Program-made: the position numbers and the translations under genes
The notes under the pieces: model-generated
What the model was told of the DNA's origin: nothing
Seen by the model: the letters and a program-made list of their open reading frames with translations, nothing else
Databases searched by the model: none
NCBI GenBank assembly: GCA_043820105.1
Contig: JBDREC010000046.1
Coordinates: 8,687-72,686, forward strand
DNA from: Pseudomonadota bacterium
Lineage (GTDB): Bacteria; Bdellovibrionota_F; JAHFAK01; JBDREC01
Direction of reading: 5' to 3'
Length of the DNA: 64,000 nucleotides
Shown: positions 40,778 through 56,229 of the stretch, piece by piece
Layout of the letters: each line of letters opens with the position of its first letter
Position numbering within the stretch: the stretch's first letter is position 1

Positions 40778-41971
40778 CTATGATAGAGAAGCTAAAAAAT
40801 CGCATATCATTGTAGGTGAATAAATCTTTTCATCTTTTGCTGGCATTAAGGGCGTGCTGATAAATTTTACACCAAGATCTTCGATTTTATTTACATCAAT
40901 TGTGCTTCTGATTGGTGAGTTTGCAAGATCTGTTACGACGAAGTTAAGTAAATTGCTTGTGCTTACGTTATCGGAACAATCTTTTTTTAGGTATTCCAAT
41001 AATACTTTTACTGATTCATCTGGATTGAGTCCGAATCTTTCTGGGTCTTCGTAAGAGTTCATTAAATAAACTTTTGGACAATTTGCCTTTGCTATTGCTG
41101 ATCCCACGCCCTTAGGCAATAAATTTACCAATAAGGAAGAATAAAAAGAACCCATAGGATAACAGATTAAGTCAGCACTATTGATAAGCGTAACTATCTT
41201 TTCTTCAGTTTCAATATCAGCGCTTTCATTGCTTTCATGATTTCTTGTTAAGAATATATTTTTTATCTTTTTATTAAGTGGTTTTTGCTCTTTTCCTGTT
41301 ATTAAATCTTGGCCTACTAGCTTAACACCATCTGAAAGCTCGACACCAATATGCATACTTTCACTAGTTACAGGTCTGACTACTCCTCTTGATTCAACAA
41401 GCTTTGAAAACATGAAAATCACTGAATCAATATCTTTGTCTTGGGAAAAATAACCACCAACTATTATAAGGTTGCCAATACTGGCTCCTTTTAAGTCAAA
41501 ATTGTTCGGCATAATATCTACAAAGAATTGAAGGTGATTTGTAATGATTTTTCTCATTGGGTTTGAGATTATTGAAATCATTGGATGGCTGCCATTAATA
41601 ATATTTAGAAGGATTGCCAATAATTCTTCCTTTGCTTTATCAAGTGGCAACCTATGGGCAAAAAGCTTATAAATTTCTGGATTACCTTTTATAGATTGAT
41701 CAGCCAGAGCCATCATTCTATTTCTTAAATCGCCAACAGCTATCATATCAAAGGCATCTCTAATTTTTCGAGAACTTCCACCTGAATCAAAAGCTGTAAT
41801 AATATGAATAGTATTATGCGAATATTTAATTATTTCTTTGCTGATTTCCCTAAGTGCTGTGCCACCAGAAAAAAACAAAATCTTTGGTCCAAGCTCTGGA
41901 GTTTTTTTAAATCTAGCGATTTTAATTTCATCAGGAATAGAAACTTGTCTGGTTATTTCAACTTTTGTCAT
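40778..41971 (-). CDS. YvcK/CofD-family protein (gluconeogenesis factor / UPF0052)
   Basis: It has SGGTALREI (the GGGTG-like P-loop) and FDSGGSSRKIRD, which are YvcK/CofD family motifs. Confidence 0.7.
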   Translation of the reverse strand: MTKVEITRQVSIPDEIKIARFKKTPELGPKILFFSGGTALREISKEIIKYSHNTIHIITAFDSGGSSRKIRDAFDMIAVGDLRNRMMALADQSIKGNPEIYKLFAHRLPLDKAKEELLAILLNIINGSHPMISIISNPMRKIITNHLQFFVDIMPNNFDLKGASIGNLIIVGGYFSQDKDIDSVIFMFSKLVESRGVVRPVTSESMHIGVELSDGVKLVGQDLITGKEQKPLNKKIKNIFLTRNHESNESADIETEEKIVTLINSADLICYPMGSFYSSLLVNLLPKGVGSAIAKANCPKVYLMNSYEDPERFGLNPDESVKVLLEYLKKDCSDNVSTSNLLNFVVTDLANSPIRSTIDVNKIEDLGVKFISTPLMPAKDEKIYSPTMICDFLASLS

Positions 41972-42532: not shown

Positions 42533-44545
42533 ATGAAAAAGGTAATTATTATTATCATTCTATCAATTTTTACCTTAAGTTGTCTTGGTTCAGATGATAC
42601 ATCTTCAGATACGACCATAACTGGTACAGTTCAAGTAATAGGTTTTGATGCTTCCACAAAAGATTTAGTGGTTAATCATCCTGTTAGTGTAAGTATTTCC
42701 GTACAATCAAAAATAGGTCTTGCCAATTTAGAGGTTTCTGTTGGACTAGTGGAAACTCCTGAAGAAAATGCAACAGAAGATGAAATGGCTGATTTGCAAT
42801 CTTGTCTTTTAGGAGTTGTTCGCTTTGAGGATCTCAAGGCAAATGTTGCTAAAACTATGCATGAAAGCTTTAGAGTGAGCTCTGATTGTGAGTTAAGTGA
42901 TACATCTAAAACCCTGAACTTTTTTACCATTATTGATATTTTTGATAAAAGTGATTTTTCAGCGGATCCTTTAAGTGATGATGGAATTGCTGCTTTTTAT
43001 ACAAAAAACCAGAGTCGTCCTAATAATAAAGTTTGCTTAACATCTGATGGTGATGTGGGATGTATTGTTAATGTTACTGTAGATGAAAATCCTGGTATAG
43101 ATTTATCTATGTCTAAATTTTCTTTGCAATCAAGTACAGTGATTTTATATGATGGCACTGATAGTTCTAATGTGCCAGCTGGTGAAGGGGAATATAATCC
43201 AGCACACGCAAAAGCTAATATAGCAATTCGCCTTGATGGAGTGAGTAGTGATGCTGAAAATGACTTAACTGCAGCTACTGAAATTCGTTATGATATATGT
43301 CCCAAAAATGGAACAAATCCAGATTGTGTTTTAGGTGAATGGATGCCTGTTACCATTTTTTCAGTAAAGGACGCTGCAAGTGGACATGATAGAATTGCTG
43401 AAGTCTCTTCTCTCAGCGGAGGGCACGATAGTTATTATCAGCATGATTTATATTTTGAAGGTGATACTTTGACTGCAATTTCAGCAGGTGGAGCTTGGGC
43501 AGATCACGGTCAATTTACGCTTCGAGCCTGCATTAACATTCCAAGAGCAGCTGAAGCAGAATTTAGTTTAAGCGCTTTTACCCCTTTAACAGAGGCTTCA
43601 GAAATGGGTTATGGTGAAAGCCTGGATAATAATTGTAAATATTTTAAGGTAAATATTACTGAACCAAGGGATCAGGGTAATTCGCCTTCTTTAAGCTTTG
43701 ATCATTCATATTCTAATACTTGGGGAGATGATGATACAATTGCTGTTTACGCAGATATCGGGACTACTAACACCCTTGACAGTGAAGGAGCCCATTCCCA
43801 TACCTATGCTGAAGTAAAACTAGAAGGCTGGATTTCTTCAACCATTTTTCATGCAGACTCAGATGTAGATGCTGATACTGATATTTCTGATAATGAAATT
43901 GACTTAACGGTCGTTGCTATGGATTCAACTGTTTACAGCTATTCAAGAGAAGGTGAGTCAGAACTAACTTTTGATGAGGATTGGTCTGTTTCTAAAAAGA
44001 TTTGTGCAACTTTTTCCTATGGAATTTGGATTGTGAGTGTTGATGTAGATGTTTGTGCTTCTGGATCTTTGGGATTTGATGCGACGCTTACGATGTCATC
44101 TCACGCTGGGGATGATACAAGTAATTTTGATACAACTACAACTGCATATGGTGAAGCAATCCCAACCATTACTCCAAGTCTTGATTTTGATGCTTCAGCC
44201 ACAGCATCACTAGATGCAGTTATTTATGAAGCAGGAGCCAAGGCTTCCATTTCACTGCTTGATCTTTCCTCGCCGTTAACGGCCTCATTAAAATGGGGAT
44301 CTTATAGTGATTCAGAAATGGGTGTTATTGTTGATGTGGACTTCTCAACAGATATTACAACTCTAGATGGTTATCTTGAATTATACGTTGATAAAAAGGA
44401 AGTGGATTGCGTTCATGATTATGAACCTTGGACTTGCAGTTCATATTGGCACCGTGAAGACACTGATACAATTGCATCATGGACTGCTGTAACATATGAT
44501 CATTCTCTCTTAAATGAAACAACTTCAGATACCTTAGAATTTTAA
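42533..44545 (+). CDS. Large acidic lipoprotein (hypothetical)
   Basis: An RBS (AAAGGAGGA) and a lipobox (FTLSCLG). 670 aa, rich in D/S/T with paired Cys. Confidence 0.6.
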   Translation: MKKVIIIIILSIFTLSCLGSDDTSSDTTITGTVQVIGFDASTKDLVVNHPVSVSISVQSKIGLANLEVSVGLVETPEENATEDEMADLQSCLLGVVRFEDLKANVAKTMHESFRVSSDCELSDTSKTLNFFTIIDIFDKSDFSADPLSDDGIAAFYTKNQSRPNNKVCLTSDGDVGCIVNVTVDENPGIDLSMSKFSLQSSTVILYDGTDSSNVPAGEGEYNPAHAKANIAIRLDGVSSDAENDLTAATEIRYDICPKNGTNPDCVLGEWMPVTIFSVKDAASGHDRIAEVSSLSGGHDSYYQHDLYFEGDTLTAISAGGAWADHGQFTLRACINIPRAAEAEFSLSAFTPLTEASEMGYGESLDNNCKYFKVNITEPRDQGNSPSLSFDHSYSNTWGDDDTIAVYADIGTTNTLDSEGAHSHTYAEVKLEGWISSTIFHADSDVDADTDISDNEIDLTVVAMDSTVYSYSREGESELTFDEDWSVSKKICATFSYGIWIVSVDVDVCASGSLGFDATLTMSSHAGDDTSNFDTTTTAYGEAIPTITPSLDFDASATASLDAVIYEAGAKASISLLDLSSPLTASLKWGSYSDSEMGVIVDVDFSTDITTLDGYLELYVDKKEVDCVHDYEPWTCSSYWHREDTDTIASWTAVTYDHSLLNETTSDTLEF

Positions 44546-44548
44546 TAA

Positions 44549-46441
44549 ATGTATTTTAAGAATAAAAAAATATATTTTTATATTTTAATTTTTCTTTTTA
44601 TTGTAGGCTGTTTTTTTCTCATAAAGGAAACTTATTTCTCAAATAATAAATCAATCGCTAATTTAGAAATATGTAACATGCAAAAAGATGATGGTTTTTC
44701 CTATGAGTTTGAAATTGATACTCGTGCCACATTTTCTTTATCGTCTTTTATGGGAAAGAAAGCAAATAAAGAAAATCTTCAAAAAACACATAATCTAATG
44801 AAAGGCAAAATAAGTTTTAGAGCACTGAAAGATACTGATGATAGGACTTTAATGGCAGGCCAATTGAGTGAATTGGAGTATGAAATTAACAAAAGAAAAG
44901 CTTTTGAATCTATAAAAGAACTTAGCATTCCTTTTAAGTTTAAACTTGGAAGCAATTGTTCAATATCAGAAATAGATTTATCCTATATTCCTAATAAGAA
45001 AAATAAACAGTTAATTGAAAATGTTATTTATGAACTGCAAATGACTTTTTTAGGTGATGAAAACCAAGAAAAATGGCAAGCAAAAGAAGAAAATGCTCTT
45101 GCAGGCTATGAAGCAAATTATTTGGTCAATGAAATTTCTAAAGATAGCATTTCTATTCATAAAGCTAAGGAAAAATATTTTACTTCAAATACTAGTTCCA
45201 ATAAATCAAATGAGAGTATTAATGTTATTTCATCTGACATCAACATTAGTATATCAAAAAATAAAAAGTGGTTTGATTCAATAAGTACAAAGGAAAGTAT
45301 TGAGATTTTAAAAAATGATGAAATATTCATGCAAGTTGAAAACAAATTAAAAATAAAAAAGTATTTAAAGCCTATTGAAAATTTAGCCCTATGGCAAGAT
45401 GATATCTTTTCAGAATATGAAAATCCTATTGATATAGAAAACTTTTCAAAGATCTATCGCAAATCCCAATTAAGTCATGAATCTAATGAGCGTGATATCA
45501 ATACATTAATAAATAGGTCTTTAAATAGGTCTTTTTCACAAATTTTAGAAGATTATAAAAAAAATATCTTATCAAAAAATCCTTTAGAAAAATCAAAGGC
45601 ACTTGATCTTTTAGTTTCTTATTTAAGGGCAAAAGAAGGGGCTAGCCTTGAGCTTACTCATGCAATAAAGACAGGTGACCTGGAAAATGAATACCAATCT
45701 ATGGCCTTTTTAGCACTGGAACTATCTTCAACTAACGAGTCACAAAAAGCCTTAATGGATGTTTTGCAGGATGTTGATCATAGTTCAATGAATAGAATGC
45801 GATCTGTGATTGCTTTGCAGGATATAAAGAATCCAGCTCCAGAAGTTTTTGATTCAATGATAATTCAAATGAATAAATCAGTTCCGGAAAACGTTGATCG
45901 TGGTGAAAATGATGTTGCAAGAACAAGTGCTTTATCTTTGGGTACATTGGCTGCAAATAATAAAGAAGCTTTTGGAGCTAGAGCTAAAGAAGAATTATTA
46001 AAAAACCTTAAAAGCGCAAATAATTCGTCAGAAACAGCGCTTTATATAAGAGCCTTGGGAAATACTAAGAATCCTTTATTAATTGATGACATAGTCCCAT
46101 ATTTAAATTCCTCTTCAAGCTCTGTACGGTCAGCTTCTGCTGACACTATTGGAGCTATAGATTCAGTGCAATCAGAAGCAATTCTTCTTAATCAGTTTTC
46201 AGAAGAAGAATCTAAAAAGGTTCGTTTAAGTATCATGAAATCTTTAAATAAATTAAGCAAAACAAGTGAAAATTCAACCAATTCCATATCAAATCTCATC
46301 TTATTTGAAGAAAATAAGGATGTGAGAGCTCAAATGATTATTTTTTTAGGTCAAAGGGCTGCTTATAAGGCTCTGTTAAACTTTAAAAACCATGAAAAAG
46401 ATAGTGATAATATAGCGTTAATTGGACGATATATAAAATAG
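44549..46441 (+). CDS. Membrane-anchored protein with C-terminal HEAT/PBS-lyase-like repeats (hypothetical)
   Basis: An N-terminal TM segment. The C-terminal repeats (RSVIALQDI..., VRSASADTIGAI...) resemble HEAT repeats. It sits 3 nt after the previous gene. Confidence 0.55.
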   Translation: MYFKNKKIYFYILIFLFIVGCFFLIKETYFSNNKSIANLEICNMQKDDGFSYEFEIDTRATFSLSSFMGKKANKENLQKTHNLMKGKISFRALKDTDDRTLMAGQLSELEYEINKRKAFESIKELSIPFKFKLGSNCSISEIDLSYIPNKKNKQLIENVIYELQMTFLGDENQEKWQAKEENALAGYEANYLVNEISKDSISIHKAKEKYFTSNTSSNKSNESINVISSDINISISKNKKWFDSISTKESIEILKNDEIFMQVENKLKIKKYLKPIENLALWQDDIFSEYENPIDIENFSKIYRKSQLSHESNERDINTLINRSLNRSFSQILEDYKKNILSKNPLEKSKALDLLVSYLRAKEGASLELTHAIKTGDLENEYQSMAFLALELSSTNESQKALMDVLQDVDHSSMNRMRSVIALQDIKNPAPEVFDSMIIQMNKSVPENVDRGENDVARTSALSLGTLAANNKEAFGARAKEELLKNLKSANNSSETALYIRALGNTKNPLLIDDIVPYLNSSSSSVRSASADTIGAIDSVQSEAILLNQFSEEESKKVRLSIMKSLNKLSKTSENSTNSISNLILFEENKDVRAQMIIFLGQRAAYKALLNFKNHEKDSDNIALIGRYIK

Positions 46442-46617: not shown

Positions 46618-47727
46618 ATGAAAACTATCAAAGATTCAAATATAAATCTTATTTCAGAAGATAAAAGAAAGAGAGATTTAGAAGAGAGAGTAAAAGAATT
46701 ACATTGCTTGCACGAGCTCTTAGATCTTTTTTACACAAATAAAAACCGCGATGATATTTTAAGCAAGGCTGTTTATATAATAAAGAAAAGTTGGCAATAT
46801 CCTGAATGCACAGAAGTAAGATTGAATTTTAATAATAAAAATTACAAAACAGGCGGTTTTGTTGAAACTGTATGGAGACAAGCAGCTGACATTCTTCTTG
46901 ATAATAAAAAGCTGGGAATCCTTGAGGTTTATTATACAGAGGAAAAACCTAAGGAATATGAAGGTGTTTTTTTAAAAGAAGAAAGGGCCTTGATAAATAG
47001 TATTTCCAGGCAATTTACCTATATGGCACAGCAGATTGAAACAGAAAAAATTATTGCTTCCTATCAAAGGCAATTAAGATCACTTGCCTCAAAACTTTCT
47101 TTAGCTGGAGAAGAAGAAAGAAGAAATATTTCAAATAGTCTTCATGATACTATTTGTCAGGATTTAGCCTTATCAAAAATAAAAATTAATAAAATAAAGA
47201 AATCTCTTGATAAAAATAATATAGATTTTGCTCTTCAGGATGTGTCAGAGCTTATTAATTCTTTATTGAATAAGACACGGGCTTTAATTTTTGATATTAG
47301 TCCACCAATTCTTTATGAACTTGGTTTAGAGGCTTCAATTGAATGGCTAGCTGAAAAAATTCAAAAAGAGCATAATATTCGTACCTCAGTTTATAATGAT
47401 AAAAGAAAAAAAAGACTTGATAAAGATTTAAAAGTATTTTTATTCCAAGCTGTGAGAGAATTATTGATAAATGTGGTCAAACATGCTCAGGCAAAGAATG
47501 TAAAAATAAACATTAACGAGCAAAATGAATTTATTGTAATTGAACTTATTGATGATGGTATAGGAATTGATGATTGTAAGCTTGATACAATAGGGGATGA
47601 AACAGGAGGTTTCGGTCTTTTTAGCATTAAAGAAAGGATTTTTTTATTTAATGGAAGCTTTGAAATATCAGGAACCTTAAATAAAGGCACACAAATAAAA
47701 TTGCTAGCACCTTTAAAACAAAAATGA
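46618..47727 (+). CDS. Cytoplasmic sensor histidine kinase (GAF-like N-domain + HisKA_3 + HATPase)
   Basis: An H-box (SNSLHDTICQDL, NarX/HisKA_3 type) and HATPase motifs (DDGIGID, GGFGL). Confidence 0.8.
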   Translation: MKTIKDSNINLISEDKRKRDLEERVKELHCLHELLDLFYTNKNRDDILSKAVYIIKKSWQYPECTEVRLNFNNKNYKTGGFVETVWRQAADILLDNKKLGILEVYYTEEKPKEYEGVFLKEERALINSISRQFTYMAQQIETEKIIASYQRQLRSLASKLSLAGEEERRNISNSLHDTICQDLALSKIKINKIKKSLDKNNIDFALQDVSELINSLLNKTRALIFDISPPILYELGLEASIEWLAEKIQKEHNIRTSVYNDKRKKRLDKDLKVFLFQAVRELLINVVKHAQAKNVKININEQNEFIVIELIDDGIGIDDCKLDTIGDETGGFGLFSIKERIFLFNGSFEISGTLNKGTQIKLLAPLKQK

Positions 47728-47740
47728 AGTGGAAAAAATA

Positions 47741-48388
47741 ATGAGCAAGAAAATATTGATAGCAGATGATCATAAAATATTACGAGATGGTTTGAAGTCA
47801 TTAATAGAAAATGAGACAAGTTTTCAAGTTGTCGCTGAAGCAAAAGATGGTGAAGAAGCTGTAGAACTTAGTCTTAAGCATAAACCAGAAATTGTCATAA
47901 TTGATATTACCATGCCAAAACTTAATGGAATAAAAGCCGCTGAAATGATTTTGCAAAAGATTAAAGATGTGAAAATTATTGCCTTATCAGTTCATGCTGA
48001 CAAAAGATATGTCTCTCAAATGTTTAAAGTTGGTGCAAAAGGATATTTATTAAAAGATTGTGCTTTTGAAGAACTAATCCAAGCTATACATACTGTTATT
48101 GAAGACAAGGTATATATAAGTCCAGCGGTAGCTGGCGAGGTTGTTGGTGATTATATAAGACATTTAGACAGAGGGAAATCTTCTGTTTTATCCTTGTTAA
48201 CTCAAAGAGAAAGAGAAGTTCTTGAGTTATTGGCAGACGGGAAAAACGCAAAAGAAGTGGCTTTCATGCTTGAAATTAGTGTTAAAACAATCGAAACACA
48301 TCGCAGACAACTTATGGAAAAGTTAAATATTCACAGTATTGCAGAATTAACAAAATATGCAATAAGAGAAGGCATAATCAATCTCTAA
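47741..48388 (+). CDS. NarL/FixJ-family response regulator (REC + LuxR HTH)
   Basis: A receiver domain (ADDH...D...K) and a C-terminal LuxR-type HTH (LTQREREVLELLADGKNAKEVAFMLEISVKTIETHR). The alternative start is 47729. Confidence 0.85.
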   Translation: MSKKILIADDHKILRDGLKSLIENETSFQVVAEAKDGEEAVELSLKHKPEIVIIDITMPKLNGIKAAEMILQKIKDVKIIALSVHADKRYVSQMFKVGAKGYLLKDCAFEELIQAIHTVIEDKVYISPAVAGEVVGDYIRHLDRGKSSVLSLLTQREREVLELLADGKNAKEVAFMLEISVKTIETHRRQLMEKLNIHSIAELTKYAIREGIINL

Positions 48389-48519: not shown

Positions 48520-49806
48520 ATGAATGACAAAGCTTTTAGTGCCTTTGAGATGGCTCAAAGACAATTTGATCAGGTTGCAGATCTTTTAGATTTAGATGCG
48601 GCCTCAAGAGATCTATTGCGTAATCCAATGAGAGAATATCATTTTAATATTCCAGTGAAAATGGATGATGGTTCAGTCTCTGTATTCAGAGGATTTAGGG
48701 TTCAACACAATGATGCAAGGGGTCCTGGTAAAGGTGGAATAAGGTTTCATCCCCAAGAGACGATTGATACTGTTAGGGCGCTTTCAATGTGGATGACCTG
48801 GAAATGTGCTTTAGTTGATATTCCTTTGGGTGGTAGTAAGGGAGGCGTGATTTGTGATCCGCATAATTTGAGCTTATCAGAGCAGGAAAGACTTTGCAGG
48901 GGATGGGTTAGACAAATTGCTAGAAATATTGGACCATGTATTGACGTGCCTGCTCCAGATGTTATGACTAATGCACAACATATGCTATGGATGCTTGATG
49001 AGTTTGAAGTTATCCATGGAGGAAAGTTTCCAGGAGTTATCACTGGAAAGCCAGTTGGCCTCGGAGGATCACTTGGCAGAACAGAAGCAACTGGATATGG
49101 TGTAATATTTACAGTAAGAGAAGCTTTAAAAGAACTGGGAATTATGCCTGAAAACACAACAGCCAGTTTTCAGGGTTTTGGAAATGTTTCACAATATGCA
49201 GCAAAACTTTATCAGCAATTGGGTGGAAAAATAATTTCTGTCTCTTGTTGGAATCAGAAAGAGCAGATAGCTTATACTTATAAAAAAATTAAGGGTATTA
49301 ATTTAGAAGATCTTTTGACAATAACAGATCGCTTTGGAGGCATTGATAAAGAAAAAGCATTTGAAAAAGGTTATGAAATCTTGCCAGCTCAAGCCTGGAT
49401 AAGTCAAGATGTTGATATTCTAATCCCAGCTGCCCTTGAGAATCAAATTACAGCTAGCAGTGTTAAAAAAATTAGTGAAAAAGTAAAAATAATTGCAGAA
49501 GGAGCTAATGGTCCTACAACACCTGAAGCAGATGTATTTATTAAAGAAAAAGGTATCTTTTTAATTCCTGATTTTTTAGCAAATGCAGGTGGGGTTACTT
49601 GCAGTTATTTTGAACAGGTGCAAAGTAATATGAATTATTATTGGGAAAAAGATGAAGTTTTAAGCAAGCTGGATCTTAAAATGACCTCTGCATTCAAAGA
49701 AGTGAGCAGGTTATCAAGAAAAAGAAATATATACCAAAGGGATGCAGCCTATATAATAGCTATTAATAATGTTGTTAAAGCTTGTAAGGAAAGAGGTTGG
49801 GTATAA
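48520..49806 (+). CDS. gdhA: Glutamate dehydrogenase (Glu/Leu/Phe/Val dehydrogenase family)
   Basis: The family signature KGGIRFHP...LVDIPLGGSKGGV and a Rossmann domain (GFGNVS). Confidence 0.85.
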   Translation: MNDKAFSAFEMAQRQFDQVADLLDLDAASRDLLRNPMREYHFNIPVKMDDGSVSVFRGFRVQHNDARGPGKGGIRFHPQETIDTVRALSMWMTWKCALVDIPLGGSKGGVICDPHNLSLSEQERLCRGWVRQIARNIGPCIDVPAPDVMTNAQHMLWMLDEFEVIHGGKFPGVITGKPVGLGGSLGRTEATGYGVIFTVREALKELGIMPENTTASFQGFGNVSQYAAKLYQQLGGKIISVSCWNQKEQIAYTYKKIKGINLEDLLTITDRFGGIDKEKAFEKGYEILPAQAWISQDVDILIPAALENQITASSVKKISEKVKIIAEGANGPTTPEADVFIKEKGIFLIPDFLANAGGVTCSYFEQVQSNMNYYWEKDEVLSKLDLKMTSAFKEVSRLSRKRNIYQRDAAYIIAINNVVKACKERGWV

Positions 49807-51566
49807 TGATTGAGAACACCAAGTTTCCACTTCCAAAAACAATCAAAAGATTTCAAAGAGAATTCTTTGAGTCAAAAGATGACTTTACGTATATTGGAAA
49901 TGGATCTTTTGGTGGTAAGGCATTGGGGCTGCTTTTTATTCATGATAAATTAGTGAAATCCTGTGAGAATAATACTGGCTTTGAGAATATTAGGGTAAGT
50001 ATTCCTAAATCTACAATTATTACGACAGAGCTGTTTGATATCTTCATGAAAAGGAATAATCTTTATGATTTATTTTCTAATAAAAATATTTCAGATGAAG
50101 ATATTGTTCTTGAGTTTCAGCAAGCCGAGTTGCCTACGGAACTTTTGGGTGATCTGCGGGCCCTAATTTCAAAAGTTCACAGTCCATTGGCCATTAGATC
50201 ATCAAGTTTGATCGAAGATTCAATAGACGCGCCCTTTGCAGGAATTTATGCAACAAAAATGATTCCTAACAATCAATCTGAAACAACAATGCGCTTTAGA
50301 AAATTATCAGATGCAATTAAGTTTGTGTACGCATCAACATTTTTTAAATCTGCCAAGGACTATATTAGTTCTATAGATTTAAACATTAACAATGAAAAAA
50401 TGGCTGTAATTATTCAAGAGTGTGTTGGAAATTTATATGATGATTATTTTTATCCGAACATATCAGGCGTGGTTCGTTCTTACAATTTTTATGCTTTTGG
50501 TAAGTCAAAACCACAAGATGGAATGGGGAGTTTGGCTTTAGGATTGGGAAAAACTATTGTGGATGGATCCAATAGTTGGAACTATTCACTTACTAATCCT
50601 AAAGCTCCTCCCCCTTATAACTCTATTTCAGACCTTTTAAAGCTTAGTCAGAATAAGTTTTGGGCTGTTGATATGTCAAAACAGACAAAATATGATCCTG
50701 TGAAAGAAACAGAGTTTATGAAATTACTTGAACTTAAAGAAGCCGAGTTTCATGGGAACTTACAGCCCATAGCTTCAACATATGACCCAGCTTCTGATAG
50801 AATAGCCTTTGGAACTCATGTAAATGGTCCAAGGCTTTTAAATTTTACTCAAATATTAGATTTTGAAGAAGTGAAATTAAATAAACTTTTATTACATATT
50901 GTGGATTTATGTAAAGATATGTTCAAAGAAGATGTTGAAATTGAATTTGCACTAAATTTTGATCATAAAAATTATAAAAATGTAAGGTTTGCTTTTTTAC
51001 AAGTCAGACCAATAGCAGTGTCAAATGAAAACACAACAGTTGAGAGTAGTGAGTTATTGCAATCTGATAATTTATTGTCTTCAGATGTTGTGTTGGGAAA
51101 CGGAAGTGATAACAATATTAAAGATATAGTTTTTGTTAAACCTGAAGTTTTTGATAAAAGTAAAACAAGACAAATCGCTAATGAACTTGAACTAATTAAT
51201 AAAGACTGTCTCAGAGAAAATATTAATTATTTATTAATTGGATTTGGTAGGTGGGGAAGTCAAGATGAATGGCTAGGAATACCAGTTGATTGGGGTCAGA
51301 TATCTAAGGCAAAGGTTATTATTGAAGCAACTTTGCCAGCAATAGATGTTGAAATAAGTCAAGGCTCCCATTTTTTTCATAATCTGACTGGCTTTAAAAT
51401 TCCTTATTTTTCTGTAAAGCACAATAGTAAATTCTCAATAGATTGGGATTGGCTTAATTCGCAGAAAATGATAAAAGAAACAAGTTTTTTAAAACATGTT
51501 AGATTAAGCAGGCCCTTAAATGTTAAAGTCGATGGCAAAAAGGGAATTGGTGTAGTGAAAAAATGA
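49806..51566 (+). CDS. PEP/pyruvate-binding (PPDK_N, ATP-grasp-like) domain protein lacking the phosphohistidine and PEP-utilising domains
   Basis: GGKALGL, the VRSSSLIEDS...FAG motif and FLQVRP, all typical of PF01326. The start overlaps the gdh stop (TAATG). The C-terminal ~180 aa is paralogous to the next gene. Confidence 0.7.
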   Translation: MIENTKFPLPKTIKRFQREFFESKDDFTYIGNGSFGGKALGLLFIHDKLVKSCENNTGFENIRVSIPKSTIITTELFDIFMKRNNLYDLFSNKNISDEDIVLEFQQAELPTELLGDLRALISKVHSPLAIRSSSLIEDSIDAPFAGIYATKMIPNNQSETTMRFRKLSDAIKFVYASTFFKSAKDYISSIDLNINNEKMAVIIQECVGNLYDDYFYPNISGVVRSYNFYAFGKSKPQDGMGSLALGLGKTIVDGSNSWNYSLTNPKAPPPYNSISDLLKLSQNKFWAVDMSKQTKYDPVKETEFMKLLELKEAEFHGNLQPIASTYDPASDRIAFGTHVNGPRLLNFTQILDFEEVKLNKLLLHIVDLCKDMFKEDVEIEFALNFDHKNYKNVRFAFLQVRPIAVSNENTTVESSELLQSDNLLSSDVVLGNGSDNNIKDIVFVKPEVFDKSKTRQIANELELINKDCLRENINYLLIGFGRWGSQDEWLGIPVDWGQISKAKVIIEATLPAIDVEISQGSHFFHNLTGFKIPYFSVKHNSKFSIDWDWLNSQKMIKETSFLKHVRLSRPLNVKVDGKKGIGVVKK

Positions 51567-54500
51567 AAAAGGATAGCAAAGCTATAAAAGATAAGACATT
51601 TTACAATGAGCTTAATGAAAGAACAAAAGAGCTGAATTGTCTTTATGAACTTGATAAAATACTGGAAATTATAGGTCTTGATAGTCTTGTTTTATTTGAA
51701 AAATTGATGCCTATTATTAAGTGTGCCTGGCGATATTCTGAAATATGTTGTATAAAAGCCATGTTTCGAAAAAAAGAATTTTATTCTGATGAATTTACTG
51801 AAACTCCATGGGTACAAAGTTCTAACATCTTTATTCAAGGGGAAAAAGTAGGACAAATAGATGTTTATTATTTGGAAGAAAAAGAAGATGTTGGGGAAGG
51901 ATGTTTTTTACCTGAAGAGAGAAAACTATTAAATACCATAGCAGATCGAGTTGGGAAATATTTTTACTATGAGGAGCTTCGCAGAAATTATTTGAAAATG
52001 CAGGAGCTTAAGCAAGAGCCTACAGAGTTAAAAGATGAAAAATGGAAAGTTATTTTAAGCATGATATCAAGGACTGATGCAAATCTCCTTGCTTTGATTG
52101 TTAAGAAGATGCTTTATAGATTATGTTGGGCTGGTAATATAGAAGCTCAGTCAATGATGCAGGAATATGGTCATGATTTAGCAGAAACACAAGAAGGGTC
52201 TATTATTGATGCTAATAGACCAATCAAAAAAAAGAAAAATGAATCACTCATTGATCTGAGAAATAAAATATTTAATATTGCTTCTGAAGTTTATAGTGAT
52301 GAAGCAATTATAGATTTAATTGAAAAATGGATGAAGGAAAATAATGTTAGCTTTCTTGTGAGAACTTTAGAAAGTAATAGTACTTCTTTTGCAGAAATAT
52401 CAGAAGCCATCTCAAAATATCAGCATTTAACTCCTGGAGATGCAAAAATATCAGGTGTTACCAAGAAAAGTCTTTTAGTGCTTTTAACCAGGAGATTTTT
52501 AACTGAAAATTTACGGTTTACAAATATTGCAAAACAGTATTTGGAAATAAAAGATTTTTATAAATTATTTCAGCATACTATTGCTCCTTTTGACAGTCAT
52601 GGAAAATTGGGTGGGAAAAGTTCTGGTCTTTTTCTTGCATCATCTATTATAAAAAGAAAAGCAAAAGATCTTAATATCCAGATAAAAGTTCCTAAGACCT
52701 GGTTTGTATCTTCAGATACAATTTATAGTTTTATTCATTATAATAATTTGGGTGATATAATTGAACAAAAATATAAAACTATTAATCAAATCAGATCCGA
52801 ATATCCACATATTGTTCACGTTTTTAAAAACGCTTCTTTTCCTTCTGAGATTATAAGTGGTTTATCCTCAGCTTTAGATGATTTTGGGAATAAACCCATT
52901 ATTGTCAGAAGTTCATCTTTATTAGAGGATAATTTTGATACATCTTTTGCTGGAAAATATAAAAGTTTATTTTTAGCTAACCAGGGGACAAAAGAAGAAA
53001 GGCTTGAAGCCTTGATGGATGGTATTGCAGAGATATTTGCATCTACTTTTGCCCCTGATCCAATTTCTTATAGAATAGAAAAAAATCTTCTGGATTTTAA
53101 AGAAGAGATGGGTATTTTAATTCAAGAAGTAGTTGGTAAAAAGACTGGAAAATATTTTTTTCCAGCTTTTGCTGGAGTTGCCTTTTGTAATAATGAATTT
53201 AGGTGGTCAAAAAGAATAAAAAAGGATGATGGGCTTTTAAGGATAGTTCCTGGTTTGGGAACAAGGGCTGTTGATAGATTAAGTGATGACTATCCAATTT
53301 TAATAGCGCCAGGTCAGCCAAATTTAAGAGTTAATACAATTCCCAAAGAAATTTGCAAATATTCTCCACAAAAAATTGATGTTATTAATTTAGAATCAAA
53401 TGAATTTCAAACTGTTGAGATTGAAAAAATATTAAAAGAAATCGACTATGATTATCCACAAATAAATAATGTTATGTCTATATATGATGGAGATTCTCTA
53501 AGAATTCCAGCACCATTTGAATTAGATTTTAAAGAAAATACCAAGGATCTTGTTGTTACTTTTGAAGGAATGTTTAGCAAAACAACATTTATTAATGATG
53601 TTAAAAAAATATTAGATGAATTGAAAAGTGTTTTAAAAACACCTGTAGATATTGAGTTTGCCTTTGATGAAAATGATTTTTATCTCTTGCAATGTCGACC
53701 ACAAAGCTATTCTATTGAGAATAAACCTCAGCCAATACCAAAAAACATTGAAGCTAAAGATTGTTTATTTACAGCACATAAGTATATTTCAAATGGATAT
53801 GTGCCTGATATTAGCCATATTGTTTATGTTGATCCTTTGAACTATGCTACTATAAAAGAACATTCAGAATTATTCAGAATTGGCAAAGTTGTTGGAAAAT
53901 TAAATAAATTATTACCAAAAAGAAAATTTATTTTAATGGGTCCTGGAAGGTGGGGAAGTAGGGGAGATATCACTTTGGGTGTCAATGTAACTTATGCTGA
54001 TATTAACAATACTTCTGTTTTAATAGAAGTGGCCAGAAAAAAAGGCAATTATGTTCCAGATCTGTCATTTGGAACGCATTTTTTTCAAGATCTGGTAGAG
54101 TCTAATATCAGATATATTCCACTATACCCAGATGAAGGGACTTGTGTTTTTAATGAAAACTTTCTTAACAATAAAAAGAACCTTTTATCAGAAATCTTAC
54201 CAAAATATGGCTATCTAAAAGACGTAATTAAGGTTATTGATGTACCGCATTCAACTGACGGGAAAATATTAAAAATATTAATGAACTCTGATCTAAACGA
54301 AGCTTTAGCCTATTTTTCAAAACCATCAATGAGCACAGAAGTAGAAGAAGAAGTATATACGCCAGATACCAAAGAAACACAGCCAGATGAATGGAATTGG
54401 AGAATGTTAATGGCCAACAAATTGGCATCAGAGCTTGATTCAAGAAAATACGGTGTAAAGAACATTTATGTATTTGGAAGCACTAAATCAGGGACTGCAC

Positions 54501-54748
54501 AAATGGGTAGCGATATTGATCTTCTGGTTCACTTTAATGGTAGCAAAAGCCAAAGAATAGAACTTATGCATTGGTTTGATGGTTGGAGCAAGGCCCTTGA
54601 TGTAATGAATTATTTAAAGACAGGATATAAGTCTGAGGGATTATTAGATGTTCATTTTATAACAGATGAAGACATTAAGAATAAGACAAGTTTTGCTGTG
54701 AAGATTGGTGCTGTAACAGATGCTGCCAAGCCTTTAAAGATGAAGTAA
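51563..54748 (+). CDS. Multidomain protein: GAF-like sensor + PPDK_N ATP-grasp-like domain + C-terminal pol-beta-superfamily nucleotidyltransferase
   Basis: The N-terminal ~130 aa is homologous to the HK N-terminus at 46618. The central part has GGKSSGL ... IVRSSSLLEDNFDTSFAG ... LLQCRP. The C-terminus carries the minimal NTase motif FGSTKSGTAQMGSDIDLLV. The ATGA overlap with the previous gene suggests coupling. Confidence 0.7.
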   Translation: MKKDSKAIKDKTFYNELNERTKELNCLYELDKILEIIGLDSLVLFEKLMPIIKCAWRYSEICCIKAMFRKKEFYSDEFTETPWVQSSNIFIQGEKVGQIDVYYLEEKEDVGEGCFLPEERKLLNTIADRVGKYFYYEELRRNYLKMQELKQEPTELKDEKWKVILSMISRTDANLLALIVKKMLYRLCWAGNIEAQSMMQEYGHDLAETQEGSIIDANRPIKKKKNESLIDLRNKIFNIASEVYSDEAIIDLIEKWMKENNVSFLVRTLESNSTSFAEISEAISKYQHLTPGDAKISGVTKKSLLVLLTRRFLTENLRFTNIAKQYLEIKDFYKLFQHTIAPFDSHGKLGGKSSGLFLASSIIKRKAKDLNIQIKVPKTWFVSSDTIYSFIHYNNLGDIIEQKYKTINQIRSEYPHIVHVFKNASFPSEIISGLSSALDDFGNKPIIVRSSSLLEDNFDTSFAGKYKSLFLANQGTKEERLEALMDGIAEIFASTFAPDPISYRIEKNLLDFKEEMGILIQEVVGKKTGKYFFPAFAGVAFCNNEFRWSKRIKKDDGLLRIVPGLGTRAVDRLSDDYPILIAPGQPNLRVNTIPKEICKYSPQKIDVINLESNEFQTVEIEKILKEIDYDYPQINNVMSIYDGDSLRIPAPFELDFKENTKDLVVTFEGMFSKTTFINDVKKILDELKSVLKTPVDIEFAFDENDFYLLQCRPQSYSIENKPQPIPKNIEAKDCLFTAHKYISNGYVPDISHIVYVDPLNYATIKEHSELFRIGKVVGKLNKLLPKRKFILMGPGRWGSRGDITLGVNVTYADINNTSVLIEVARKKGNYVPDLSFGTHFFQDLVESNIRYIPLYPDEGTCVFNENFLNNKKNLLSEILPKYGYLKDVIKVIDVPHSTDGKILKILMNSDLNEALAYFSKPSMSTEVEEEVYTPDTKETQPDEWNWRMLMANKLASELDSRKYGVKNIYVFGSTKSGTAQMGSDIDLLVHFNGSKSQRIELMHWFDGWSKALDVMNYLKTGYKSEGLLDVHFITDEDIKNKTSFAVKIGAVTDAAKPLKMK

Positions 54749-54750
54749 TA

Positions 54751-55623
54751 TTAGATGAGAATTCTTTTAGCTTGATCAAGCTTATCTAAGTTAAATTCAA
54801 CAATAGCGAGTTCCTTGCCATTATGTGCAGCTGAGAAACAGTGGGTTTCATTAATTTTATCTTTCCATGACTTTGTTATACTTGCTGATTCATGGATGTG
54901 TCCATGAAGAGTTAATAATGGTTTGTTATTTTCAATAAATCTTCTTATTGCAATGCTACCTACATGAACATCAAGCTGCACATGGTCTATCATTTTTCCA
55001 TCAAGTGCAGCATAATCAAGGTTTGTGTTGTGAGGAGGAGCATGAAATAAAAATATTGAATTTATAAATTTATCACCCTTTGTTAGGATTTCCAGATCAT
55101 TAGAAATCGTAGAATGTTTAATAATATTTTCTGGAATTTTTTCTGATCTATAACCTTCATAGGGATGAATACAGCCTGGGTCAACATATTGACTAACATC
55201 ATATTTTTCCCAATCTTTAAAAAGAAATGGAGTAGGTGGTATATATGAATATCCGAATATATTATAATTATAAAGTTGGGTTTTTTTAAAATGAATATAA
55301 TTCCAAAGCCCTTTTTTTTCAGCTTCTATTAAATGAACTTCATTTATTTTTGGGTCATCATTTCCGAGTATTAAATATATTTTGGGATATTGTTTTTTTA
55401 GCTTTTTCCTGAGAATAAATAACTGAGGACTTAGAAAATCGTTTATAAAATTATCGTAATTTTTGTGATTATTGTTTGTTAAGCAACTAAAGGCAGATGG
55501 TAATATATCACCTCCAACAAAAATGATTTCAGGAGTTTTTTTTATGATATACTTAAAAAGTTTGTTATATTTTACTATATCTCCATGTAGGTCTGTCACA
55601 AAAAAACATTTTGTTTGGTTCAT
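54751..55623 (-). CDS. Calcineurin-like metallophosphoesterase
   Basis: The motif series DLHGD, GGD, GNDD and GHIHE is present. Confidence 0.75.
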   Translation of the reverse strand: MNQTKCFFVTDLHGDIVKYNKLFKYIIKKTPEIIFVGGDILPSAFSCLTNNNHKNYDNFINDFLSPQLFILRKKLKKQYPKIYLILGNDDPKINEVHLIEAEKKGLWNYIHFKKTQLYNYNIFGYSYIPPTPFLFKDWEKYDVSQYVDPGCIHPYEGYRSEKIPENIIKHSTISNDLEILTKGDKFINSIFLFHAPPHNTNLDYAALDGKMIDHVQLDVHVGSIAIRRFIENNKPLLTLHGHIHESASITKSWKDKINETHCFSAAHNGKELAIVEFNLDKLDQAKRILI

Positions 55624-56078: not shown

Positions 56079-56229
56079 TGTTTTTTAGTAAAAAGTTGAT
56101 AAATATTTGTTCTTTAATAGTAGTTTATTATAAAATAGTCAAATAATTGATTTATATATTTGAGAGAGACCTTGATTCTTTTTATTAAAATTGATAAAGA
56201 TTTTCTTTCAATATCTTGTGGGGAATAAA

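Follow-up and report, generated by a model that had tools for sequence, protein, structure and literature searches.

A gdh-linked pair of truncated dikinase-like proteins: a candidate regulatory module of glutamate dehydrogenase in many bacterial phyla

The window, i.e., the whole stretch of 64,000 nucleotides that was analysed, contains a gene cluster beginning with gdh (48520..49806, + strand), which encodes a hexameric-type glutamate dehydrogenase (GDH) of 428 aa. It is followed on the + strand by gene B (49806..51566; 586 aa counted from the ATG) and gene C (51563..54748; 1061 aa). The gdh stop and the B start overlap in TAATG (49804-49808) and the B stop and the C start in ATGA (51563-51566), thus the three co-directional reading frames with these overlaps, as proposed in the initial annotation, are present in the sequence. 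The unit is nevertheless larger than stated there. It includes a conserved metallophosphoesterase gene (54751..55623, − strand; 290 aa), convergent to C, the stop codon being 2 nt past that of C, and in this window also a cytoplasmic histidine kinase (46618..47727, + strand; 369 aa) and a LuxR-type response regulator (47729..48388, + strand; 219 aa) located 131 nt upstream of gdh; the annotation had omitted the phosphoesterase and the kinase.

Glutamate dehydrogenase is a junction of carbon and nitrogen metabolism, and bacteria are believed to control it chiefly by transcription or allostery. The gdh product contains both expected domains at full length (Pfam ELFV_dehydrog_N, E 2e-54; ELFV_dehydrog, E 8e-68) and matches NCBIfam GdhA_Arch over its full length (477 bits). 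The nearest solved structure, also aligned at full length, is Thermococcus GDH 1euz (E 5e-124). The motifs GKGGIRFHP and NAGGVTCSYFE can be read from the sequence; the Lys of the first and the Ser of the second are the residues of glutamate specificity in this family. No obvious regulatory insertion was seen by comparison with solved GDH, i.e., the enzyme looks ordinary.

B and C each contain a PPDK_N ATP-grasp domain, as had been annotated: residues 34-419 in B (E 4.5e-33, profile positions 3-325 of 328) and residues 348-730 in C (E 1e-60). In C the domain, taken as residues 345-730 (52595..53752), carries the motifs GGK, VRSSSLLED, FAG, DIEFA and LQCRP. The ATP-grasp motifs are invariant in 53 B sequences and 55 C sequences. 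The two proteins are paralogous, in agreement with the annotation (29% identity across 532 aa, E 1e-41), and a GRWGS...G[ST]HFF domain lies inside the alignment. The Pfam scan gave no match to PEP-utilizers (PF00391) or PEP-utilizers_C (PF02896) in B or C, so that the reported absence of the canonical swivel and TIM-barrel domains holds. Homologues are annotated in databases as, e.g., «pyruvate, water dikinase», and B and C might thus be taken for a PEP synthase/PPDK split by a frameshift or an assembly error; this reading, for which a check had been advised, is refuted, since PPDK_N is complete in both proteins, their identity does not exceed 29%, PF00391 and PF02896 are absent from both, and the pair of genes is found in this layout at 56 of the 80 loci. 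Between the two genes the median gap is −7 nt; in some genomes they are joined and encode one protein of about 1640 aa. The overlap, the short gap and the fusions indicate that B and C work together.

The domain that follows PPDK_N in both proteins spans residues ~420-586 in B (51063..51563; motifs GFGRWGS and SQGSHFF) and residues ~734-920 in C (53762..54322; motifs GPGRWGS and SFGTHFFQDLVE). The initial annotation was right in seeing it as shared but described it as a degenerate swivel with no His, whereas the very motifs it quoted (GSHFF and GTHFF) contain one. This residue, H522 of B (codon 51369-51371) and H839 of C (codon 54077-54079), is invariant in the 53 B and 55 C sequences, respectively. 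It stands at the N-terminus of a helix in a swivel-like fold. The domain is thus a swivel-like fold with an invariant His, not a His-less swivel remnant, and a phosphohistidine relay is therefore a likelier predicted chemistry than a dead domain. There is no sequence similarity to the canonical PPDK His domain. A profile of this His-domain (A4) found 2305 cluster representatives, and it lies directly after PPDK_N in 10 of the 10 unusual architectures scanned. This phosphoryl-carrier-like domain, with its invariant His and always behind a PPDK_N ATP-grasp, is defined here; it has no Pfam model.

The other domains of C are absent from B. Residues 1-150 (51563..52012; motif ERxKELNCLY) adopt a GAF fold, i.e., a central antiparallel sheet with flanking helices, the same fold as in NifA and PtsP. 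The GAF-like sensor of the annotation is thus real. It is a divergent GAF sensor without Pfam model, also found on histidine kinases and defined here. Next comes an all-helical domain (residues ~154-340; 52022..52582; helices 154-337 in the AlphaFold secondary structure) that matches no Pfam family; it is likewise defined here, and is kept in P0278, a 777-aa C-type variant lacking both GAF and nucleotidyltransferase (NTase). The AlphaFold model of C has a pLDDT of 80 and a pTM of 0.63.

The C-terminus of C is a minimal pol-beta-type NTase (residues ~943-1050; 54389..54712), with the motif FGS(x10)DID plus D1029. It matches Pfam NTP_transf_2 (PF01909; residues 953-1010, E 1e-10, or 1e-11 with the domain scanned alone), Polbeta (E 7e-7) and NCBIfam MntA_antitoxin (E 1.2e-5, under the cut-off of that model). 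The pol-beta signature hG[GS] x9-13 Dh[DE] is present with a third, downstream acidic residue. Among 54-55 C sequences there is no variation at G972, S973, D986 and D1029, and at least 90% have D984; the assignment made initially, whose motif was to be looked for in orthologues, is thus borne out.

The convergent phosphoesterase belongs to Pfam Metallophos (PF00149, E 1e-10), and the calcineurin-like motifs DLHGD, GGD, GNDD and GHIH can be read from its translation; no close solved relative was found. Of the 65 loci with enough sequence, 37 have an orthologue (45-58% identity) as the next gene after C, convergent to it in 35 of the 37 (median gap 10 nt). It tracks B (31/41 loci vs. 3/16; Fisher p 1.6e-4). 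Being missing from about 40% of loci, and following B rather than the NTase, it fits poorly with a simple pair of NTase writer and phosphoesterase eraser.

On the upstream side, the histidine kinase (Pfam HisKA_3 and HATPase_c) has as its N-terminal 130 aa the GAF-type sensor of C (residues 20-130 vs. residues 16-127 of C: 38% identity, E 6e-20). The response regulator matches Response_reg (E 1.6e-28) and GerE (E 5e-19). Sensor-bearing histidine kinases occur near the module in three further loci (L028, L057, L080); a similar LuxR-type regulator precedes gdh in L028 and L045, and in L083 one follows a family member with three GAF domains. The kinase is likely the transcriptional arm of the module.

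The family is large: more than 5500 homologues of C were found, and at least 547 species genomes contain the module. Eighty loci, all from metagenome-assembled genomes and belonging to many bacterial phyla, were examined in detail. Sixty-one of them are informative on the upstream side, having 3.3 kb or more of sequence there; with gdh counted at 60% identity or more, it is the gene immediately 5' of B or C in 58 of the 61, and shares their strand in 55. The gdh orthologues adjoining B or C are 66-78% identical to that of this window, and the phyla concerned include Ignavibacteria, Bacteroidota, Calditrichota, Zixibacteria, Acidobacteriota, Planctomycetota and Spirochaetes, among others. The link to glutamate dehydrogenase is thus much stronger than had been claimed. 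It extends to more remote members of the family and to further subfamilies of GDH: REC-type proteins of about 1000 aa adjoin a GDH of 31-36% identity (L002, L038, L059, L066, L082), a GAF plus B-type protein adjoins one of 40% identity (L084), and a C-type protein without GAF and NTase adjoins one of 68% identity (L085). All-against-all clustering of the ORFs in the examined loci found no conserved neighbours other than gdh and the phosphoesterase. The N-terminal input differs from one member of the family to another, being either REC or GAF domains, the latter one to three in number. These interchangeable inputs, together with the same sensor on adjacent kinases, argue for a regulatory character.

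From gene linkage and domain logic we infer that the module may act on GDH or on a small molecule. The best explanation, held tentatively and with a confidence just short of even, is that it would be a signal-gated, ATP-driven system of phosphohistidine and nucleotidyl transfer dedicated to GDH. The GAF domain of C would sense a metabolite, and the GAF-type sensor of the neighbouring kinase would drive transcription via the LuxR-type regulator. The PPDK_N domains would load ATP phosphate, dikinase-style, onto H522 of B and H839 of C. Since a third domain for substrate binding is missing from B and C, and no partner but GDH is universally co-conserved, the phosphohistidine domain would then dock on GDH, and either phosphorylate it or control it while bound. 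The NTase may attach a nucleotide, probably AMP, either to GDH or to B/C, and the convergent metallophosphoesterase may take the modification off. It must be noticed that the same linkage would be expected if GDH merely supplied or consumed a metabolite of a shared pathway, and that the ordinary aspect of the linked GDH, with no obvious regulatory insertion, also speaks against a dedicated regulator. Enzyme-specific modifiers (AceK, PpsR, GlnE) are often encoded beside their target. AMPylation of a GDH is documented in mammals, where SelO modifies and inactivates the enzyme (PMC12375108). A literature search found no description of this gdh-linked module, in line with the initial view of an undescribed system.

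Among the alternatives, the first is that B and C form a small-molecule dikinase plus nucleotidyltransferase in a glutamate/2-oxoglutarate pathway, a metabolite being phosphorylated or adenylylated. GDH would only supply or remove glutamate, 2-oxoglutarate or ammonium, and the phosphoesterase would recycle a by-product. Rifampin phosphotransferase, HpeHI, phenylphosphate synthase and PigC may be cited as parallels; however, B has no possible substrate-binding domain beyond the ATP-grasp and the His-domain, GDH would be the sole other pathway enzyme since no further enzyme gene is conserved nearby, and swappable GAF/REC inputs with a paired sensor kinase are typical of signalling, not of pathway enzymes. 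This explanation is considered unlikely. A somewhat more doubtful one is a non-covalent regulator, in which His-autophosphorylated B/C would bind GDH and affect either its activity or its oligomerisation, without handing the phosphoryl group on to it, and the NTase would modify B or C. It is the working model for VadK, of the same ATP-grasp and His-domain layout without TIM barrel, although that model is itself a proposal (AlphaFold3 ipTM 0.36-0.41; PMC13400623). The linkage and fusion data apply equally to it, and sequence data cannot separate it from the main explanation.

It is highly improbable that GDH is the missing third domain of the dikinase, the phosphohistidine domain delivering phosphate to a substrate or intermediate in the GDH active site and ATP driving high-affinity ammonium assimilation. 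The lack of an acceptor-binding domain in B and C, GDH as the only universal partner, and a translational coupling that suggests a stoichiometric complex would agree with it, but no precedent exists, no adaptation is visible in the linked GDH, and sensor domains and NTase would be superfluous for such a role. An anti-phage defence or toxin-antitoxin system around an MNT-like nucleotidyltransferase is hardly credible: PADLOC PDC-S09 candidate-system models (E 1.6e-9) and the MntA_antitoxin model match the NTase, but over only ~45 residues of its core, B has no PADLOC match, no HEPN domain was found in C or its neighbours, and the same chromosomal context with housekeeping gdh recurs across phyla with no conserved mobile or defence genes nearby.

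A dedicated GDH module may also be considered more broadly. Rather than working on its own, GDH could act as acceptor in an ATP-driven machine of three parts, the His of B/C bringing ATP phosphate into the GDH complex, either for a new, reversible GDH modification under GAF/REC control or for the phosphorylation of an intermediate driving ammonium assimilation; this is plausible, though less likely than not. If true, a third, ATP-dependent mode of control or assimilation would exist beside GS-GOGAT and GlnE/GlnD/PII, and hundreds of species would have it, among them Ignavibacteria, Bacteroidota, Acidobacteriota, Planctomycetota and members of other phyla. The results suggest a widespread, unstudied layer of nitrogen control, post-translational or energy-coupled; the phyla of the 80 loci are abundant in soils, sediments and bioreactors.

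The comparison with known systems leads to the following distinctions. PEP synthase and PPDK (EC 2.7.9.1/2) share PPDK_N with B and C, which lack the canonical swivel (GGxTSH) and the TIM barrel; NCBIfam PEP_synth gives 32 and 65 bits on B and C vs. a cut-off of 740. Rifampin phosphotransferase (RPH; PDB 5hv1, 5hv6) binds rifampin through a domain of its own and carries the canonical swivel (PF00391); B/C have neither. The RIF_Ptrans_rph model gives 16 and 38 bits vs. a cut-off of 999, and covers part of the ATP-grasp only. Phenylphosphate synthase is one split dikinase and HpeHI another, and unlike these, B and C each have ATP-grasp plus His-domain, the conserved partner being GDH. In both split dikinases, it is the partner subunit that holds the canonical His domain and the aromatic-substrate site, as in the hydroxyphenylethanone kinase HpeHI (PMC12167813; PDB 9goj).

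PtsP/Enzyme I-Ntr of the nitrogen phosphotransferase system uses PEP in a TIM barrel, not ATP in an ATP-grasp, and has no NTase; only folds are common to PtsP and C, with no further sequence-level relationship. GlnE and GlnD control nitrogen assimilation, the NTase of GlnD being paired with a nucleotide-removing phosphohydrolase. GlnE, GlnD and MntA-type enzymes are pol-beta-fold NTases that nucleotidylylate proteins, and the NTase of C is of the pol-beta type. Unlike in GlnE/GlnD, it is minimal (~110 aa) and fused to a dikinase-like core; neither a GlnE/GlnD-type NTase, nor a second NTase, nor HD or ACT domains were found in C with Pfam and NCBIfam. Unlike MNT-HEPN systems, there is no HEPN partner, the only conserved neighbours being GDH and the metallophosphoesterase.

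A close parallel, compared by description, is VadK (Rv1127c) of Mycobacterium tuberculosis, in which only the ATP-grasp and the His domain of a PPDK are left. Its ATP- and Mg-dependent autophosphorylation, at His422, was established on purified protein by mass spectrometry, and it binds enzymes of the methylcitrate cycle, whose flux it tunes (PMC13400623). As in VadK, an ATP-grasp is followed by a His phosphoryl-carrier-type domain, without PEP/pyruvate TIM barrel. VadK retains the canonical PPDK His domain, to which the His-domain of B/C has no sequence similarity, and it lacks GAF, helical and NTase domains, a paralogous partner and a phosphoesterase; the enzymes it binds belong to the methylcitrate cycle, GDH not being among them. 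VadK has been proposed as a post-translational regulator of metabolic enzymes acting by direct contact (PMC13400623), a likeness which is proposed here for B/C, and the present module would extend the finding that truncated dikinases can be regulators instead of metabolic enzymes.

Three co-directional genes form the cluster. ORF1 (gdh, 48520-49806, 428 aa) has full-length Pfam matches to Glu/Leu/Phe/Val dehydrogenase (E 2e-54 and 8e-68). Protein B (49806-51566) has 586 aa when counted from its ATG (the mechanical ORF list begins 3 codons upstream, at TTG) and a single Pfam PPDK_N domain (residues 34-419, E 4.5e-33). Protein C (51563-54748, 1061 aa) has PPDK_N at residues 348-730 (E 1e-60) and a nucleotidyltransferase (NTase) at residues 953-1010 (E 1e-10). 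The gene junctions, read directly from the sequence, are GGGTATAATGATT and AAAAAATGAAAAAG: the TAATG and ATGA overlaps described in the initial annotation are thus genuine. The absence of PEP-utilizers and PEP-utilizers_C domains noted there is borne out by Pfam, with no match for either protein, and so is the paralogy of B and C (29% identity over 532 residues, E 1e-41, the alignment spanning the GRWGS...G[ST]HFF region). It had been considered that the two proteins might be a mis-split PEP synthase; this is ruled out, since each has its own full PPDK_N, their mutual identity is only 29% and the pair is conserved.

ORF1 is an ordinary hexameric-type glutamate dehydrogenase (GDH), and its whole length aligns with the GDH structures of Thermococcus, Pyrococcus and Thermotoga (E 1e-124 to 1e-115). 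A search for a regulatory insertion in module-linked GDH, by comparison with Thermococcus GDH, gave just small indels, in the NAD-binding domain. Rfam, run on the whole window for a riboswitch or leader 5' of gdh, gave zero matches, and a promoter/terminator scan of this AT-rich DNA found 45 promoter-like sites vs. 49 expected.

B and C have in common a domain C-terminal of PPDK_N, hereafter His-domain. The initial annotation described it as having no His, which is wrong: H522 of B and H839 of C show no variation in 53 and 55 sequences, respectively. In the joint alignment of both families the invariant positions include this His, GxGRWGS, one Glu and one Tyr. The predicted structure of B has a pLDDT of 88 and a pTM of 0.88, that of C a pLDDT of 80 and a pTM of 0.63, with residues 154-340 of C entirely helical. 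In both models a helix that comes after a strand bears the invariant His at its N-terminal end; PPDK, PEPS and Enzyme I have their catalytic His in the same kind of place. By Foldseek, the 586-residue B is colinear with whole PPDK (650-710 columns) and with PEP synthase (481 columns), and the alignment with the isolated RPH ATP domain has about 390 columns, i.e., the extent of ATP-grasp alone. The modelled B is thus alignable to PPDK and PEP synthase well past ATP-grasp.

Sequence homology between His-domain and the canonical swivel is rejected, three tests being negative: (i) hhalign with E. coli PpsA found none; (ii) the His-domain profile gave chance matches only against all PDB sequences; (iii) profile-profile HHalign against 120 genuine PpsA swivel domains gave a probability below 1%. 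The likeness remains at the level of the fold alone. A greedy alignment set GRWGS..LGIPV against GGRTCH..LGIPAV, the residue mapping thus being ambiguous. His-domain is read here as a swivel-like fold with the right position and an invariant His, yet a distinct sequence family, the residue equivalence being putative. Pfam searched at E up to 10 gave no credible match for the three unassigned regions. Searched against 1.84 billion proteins, the His-domain profile retrieved 2305 cluster representatives, and PPDK_N immediately precedes it in 10/10 unusual architectures scanned, with varying N-termini.

The protein collection contains more than 5500 homologues of C, whose identity to the query is about 50-55% throughout, and at least 547 species genomes encode C (scan with one genome per species). 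Homologue P0114 comes from an isolate, Melioribacteraceae bacterium 4301-Me. The neighbourhoods were compared in the 80 best loci, every one from a metagenome-assembled genome, their ORFs being matched to the window proteins by BLAST. These loci belong to Ignavibacteria/Melioribacteraceae, Bacteroidota, Calditrichota, Zixibacteria, Eisenbacteria, Krumholzibacteriota, Fermentibacteria, Cloacimonadota, Acidobacteriota, Planctomycetota, Myxococcales, Spirochaetes and others. Of the 61 loci whose upstream sequence reaches 3.3 kb or more, 58 have GDH (66-78% identity) immediately upstream, 55 of them on the same strand. B is found in 56/80 loci at a median distance of -7 nt from C, thus the overlap is conserved. 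In several lineages (P0001, P0002, P0010) B and C are fused into one chain of about 1640 aa. Among loci with 2 kb or more of sequence upstream, 19 lack B; most of these have GDH directly before C, and two (L016 and L059) have no GDH.

When all locus ORFs were clustered, the sole further conserved neighbour was a convergent metallophosphoesterase (54751-55623). Its orthologues (45-58% identity) occur in 37 of the 65 loci with enough downstream sequence, convergent in 35 of them (median spacing 10 nt). It is present in 31/41 loci with B vs. 3/16 without B (Fisher p 1.6e-4, uncorrected for phylogeny; 16 of the 19 loci lacking B enter this count). From this co-occurrence the module appears to exist in two forms: full (gdh-B-C plus phosphoesterase) and minimal (gdh-C). 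The enzyme carries a GNDD motif, read from the translation, and a weak NCBIfam match to YfcE; the motif is closer to phosphodiesterases such as YfcE than to the GNHE of protein phosphatases.

A wider family is found beside other GDHs. Proteins of about 1000 aa with REC, PPDK_N and His-domain, a weak DUF5752 match and no NTase adjoin another GDH (31-36% identical) in L002, L038, L057, L059, L066 and L082, and GDH genes of this subfamily occur in L008, L030 and L062 too. This is a second, paralogous pairing (e.g., L066:6559-9633 and L066:9718-11181), and some loci carry it together with the gdh-B-C module. At L038:11145-17659 (minus strand), the phosphoesterase is co-directional with a cluster of REC type (response regulator, GDH2, REC/PPDK_N protein, phosphoesterase) and convergent to gdh-B-C; given this orientation, one enzyme may serve both systems. 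A GAF plus B-type protein adjoins a GDH of 40% identity in L084, and a C-type protein without GAF and without NTase adjoins a GDH of 68% identity in L085. P0008 (1202 aa) has two copies of the GAF-type sensor and P0290 (L083:62-4636, 1524 aa) three, the latter protein being followed by a LuxR-type regulator; this indicates a modular expansion of the input domain. As N-termini and NTase vary beside GDHs of several subfamilies, the constant unit is ATP-grasp, His-domain and neighbouring GDH, while sensors and NTase are interchangeable accessories.

Directly upstream of gdh, the window encodes a cytoplasmic histidine kinase and a LuxR-type response regulator (46618-48388), the latter ending 131 nt short of gdh. 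The kinase (46618-47727; HisKA_3, HATPase_c) has an N-terminal GAF-type sensor 38% identical to that of C (E 6e-20); its first 130 aa are the same unmodelled sensor, with the ERxKELxCL motif and a conserved Cys. In the GAF domain Cys26 shows almost no variation. Kinases with this sensor flank the module in L028, L057 and L080. The common sensor suggests that one signal governs both transcription of the cluster and activity of C.

Other features of the window were also recorded. Just upstream of the kinase-regulator pair, two large adjacent ORFs (42533-46441, plus strand; 670 aa without Pfam match and 630 aa with HEAT_2 repeats only) are not conserved beside the module in other loci. An overlapping gene pair (56191-57980, plus strand) encodes a 3-oxo-5-alpha-steroid 4-dehydrogenase (Steroid_dh, E 2e-49) and a protein resembling NAD-dependent epimerase/3-beta-HSD; bacteria seldom have these two genes together, and the pair is likewise not conserved with the module. 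A 1215-aa ORF (57995-61642, minus strand) matches zero Pfam families at E 1e-3; its stretch has a G+C of 0.36-0.39, above its surroundings, and a reversed GC skew. A CofD-like 2-phospho-L-lactate transferase homologue (40778-41971, minus strand, E 3e-39) adjoins uvrA, and no further F420 genes were seen among the window ORFs scanned. NCBI assigns P0121, a protein identical to B, to a "Pseudomonadota bacterium" MAG. However, the G+C of the window is about 32% and the nearest B and C homologues whose source names an organism are mostly from Ignavibacteria, Calditrichia and Bacteroidota. The label may be wrong, or the lineage unusual.

All known PPDK_N enzymes transfer a phosphate from ATP to a His of a mobile domain, then to an acceptor on a third domain or subunit. 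This scheme is established for PPDK, PEPS and RPH. The split enzyme HpeHI follows the same phosphate-loading scheme (PMC12167813). In the C NTase the active site is intact and conserved; the closest NCBIfam relatives are enzymes of MntA type, which AMPylate proteins. Since B has nothing past ATP-grasp and His-domain, the acceptor must sit on another protein, and as GDH is the sole universal partner, B and C are proposed to act directly on it. Together they would make up a GAF-gated phosphohistidine enzyme of two different subunits, in some cases fused; the NTase would transfer a nucleotide onto either GDH or B/C, and the metallophosphoesterase would reverse a modification.

The main alternative is a small-molecule dikinase pathway, as most characterised relatives use small-molecule substrates; however, neither a substrate-binding domain nor an additional pathway gene is conserved, and the swappable GAF/REC inputs resemble signalling. 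B and C could also be a non-covalent regulator on the model of VadK, which the sequence fits as well as it does direct modification of GDH. The most radical interpretation compatible with the data is a GDH coupled to ATP. A defence or toxin-antitoxin system is rejected, as a HEPN partner is absent and the PADLOC and MntA matches extend no further than the NTase core.

Homologues bear generic database names ("PEP/pyruvate-binding domain-containing protein", "nucleotidyltransferase domain-containing protein"); "pyruvate, water dikinase", also attached to them, is mistaken. A partial coverage of the literature on the domain combination, DUF5752, the GDH-dikinase link and Bacteroides gdhA trans-acting genes gave no description of the module. 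As far as can be told, no earlier account exists of the combination, of the new His-domain family or of the near-obligate link to GDH. The module is very widespread and touches a central enzyme; its comparative support is strong, while its function is inferred.

The component chemistries are of known kinds, i.e., dikinase-type His relay, pol-beta NTase and metallophosphoesterase. VadK, a PPDK cut down to its ATP-grasp and His core domains, autophosphorylates on His422 and regulates the methylcitrate-cycle enzymes that it binds (PMC13400623); the core of B and C has the same two domains. SelO AMPylates and inactivates mammalian GDH (PMC12375108). These two precedents make the proposed chemical steps of a GDH-directed mechanism plausible.
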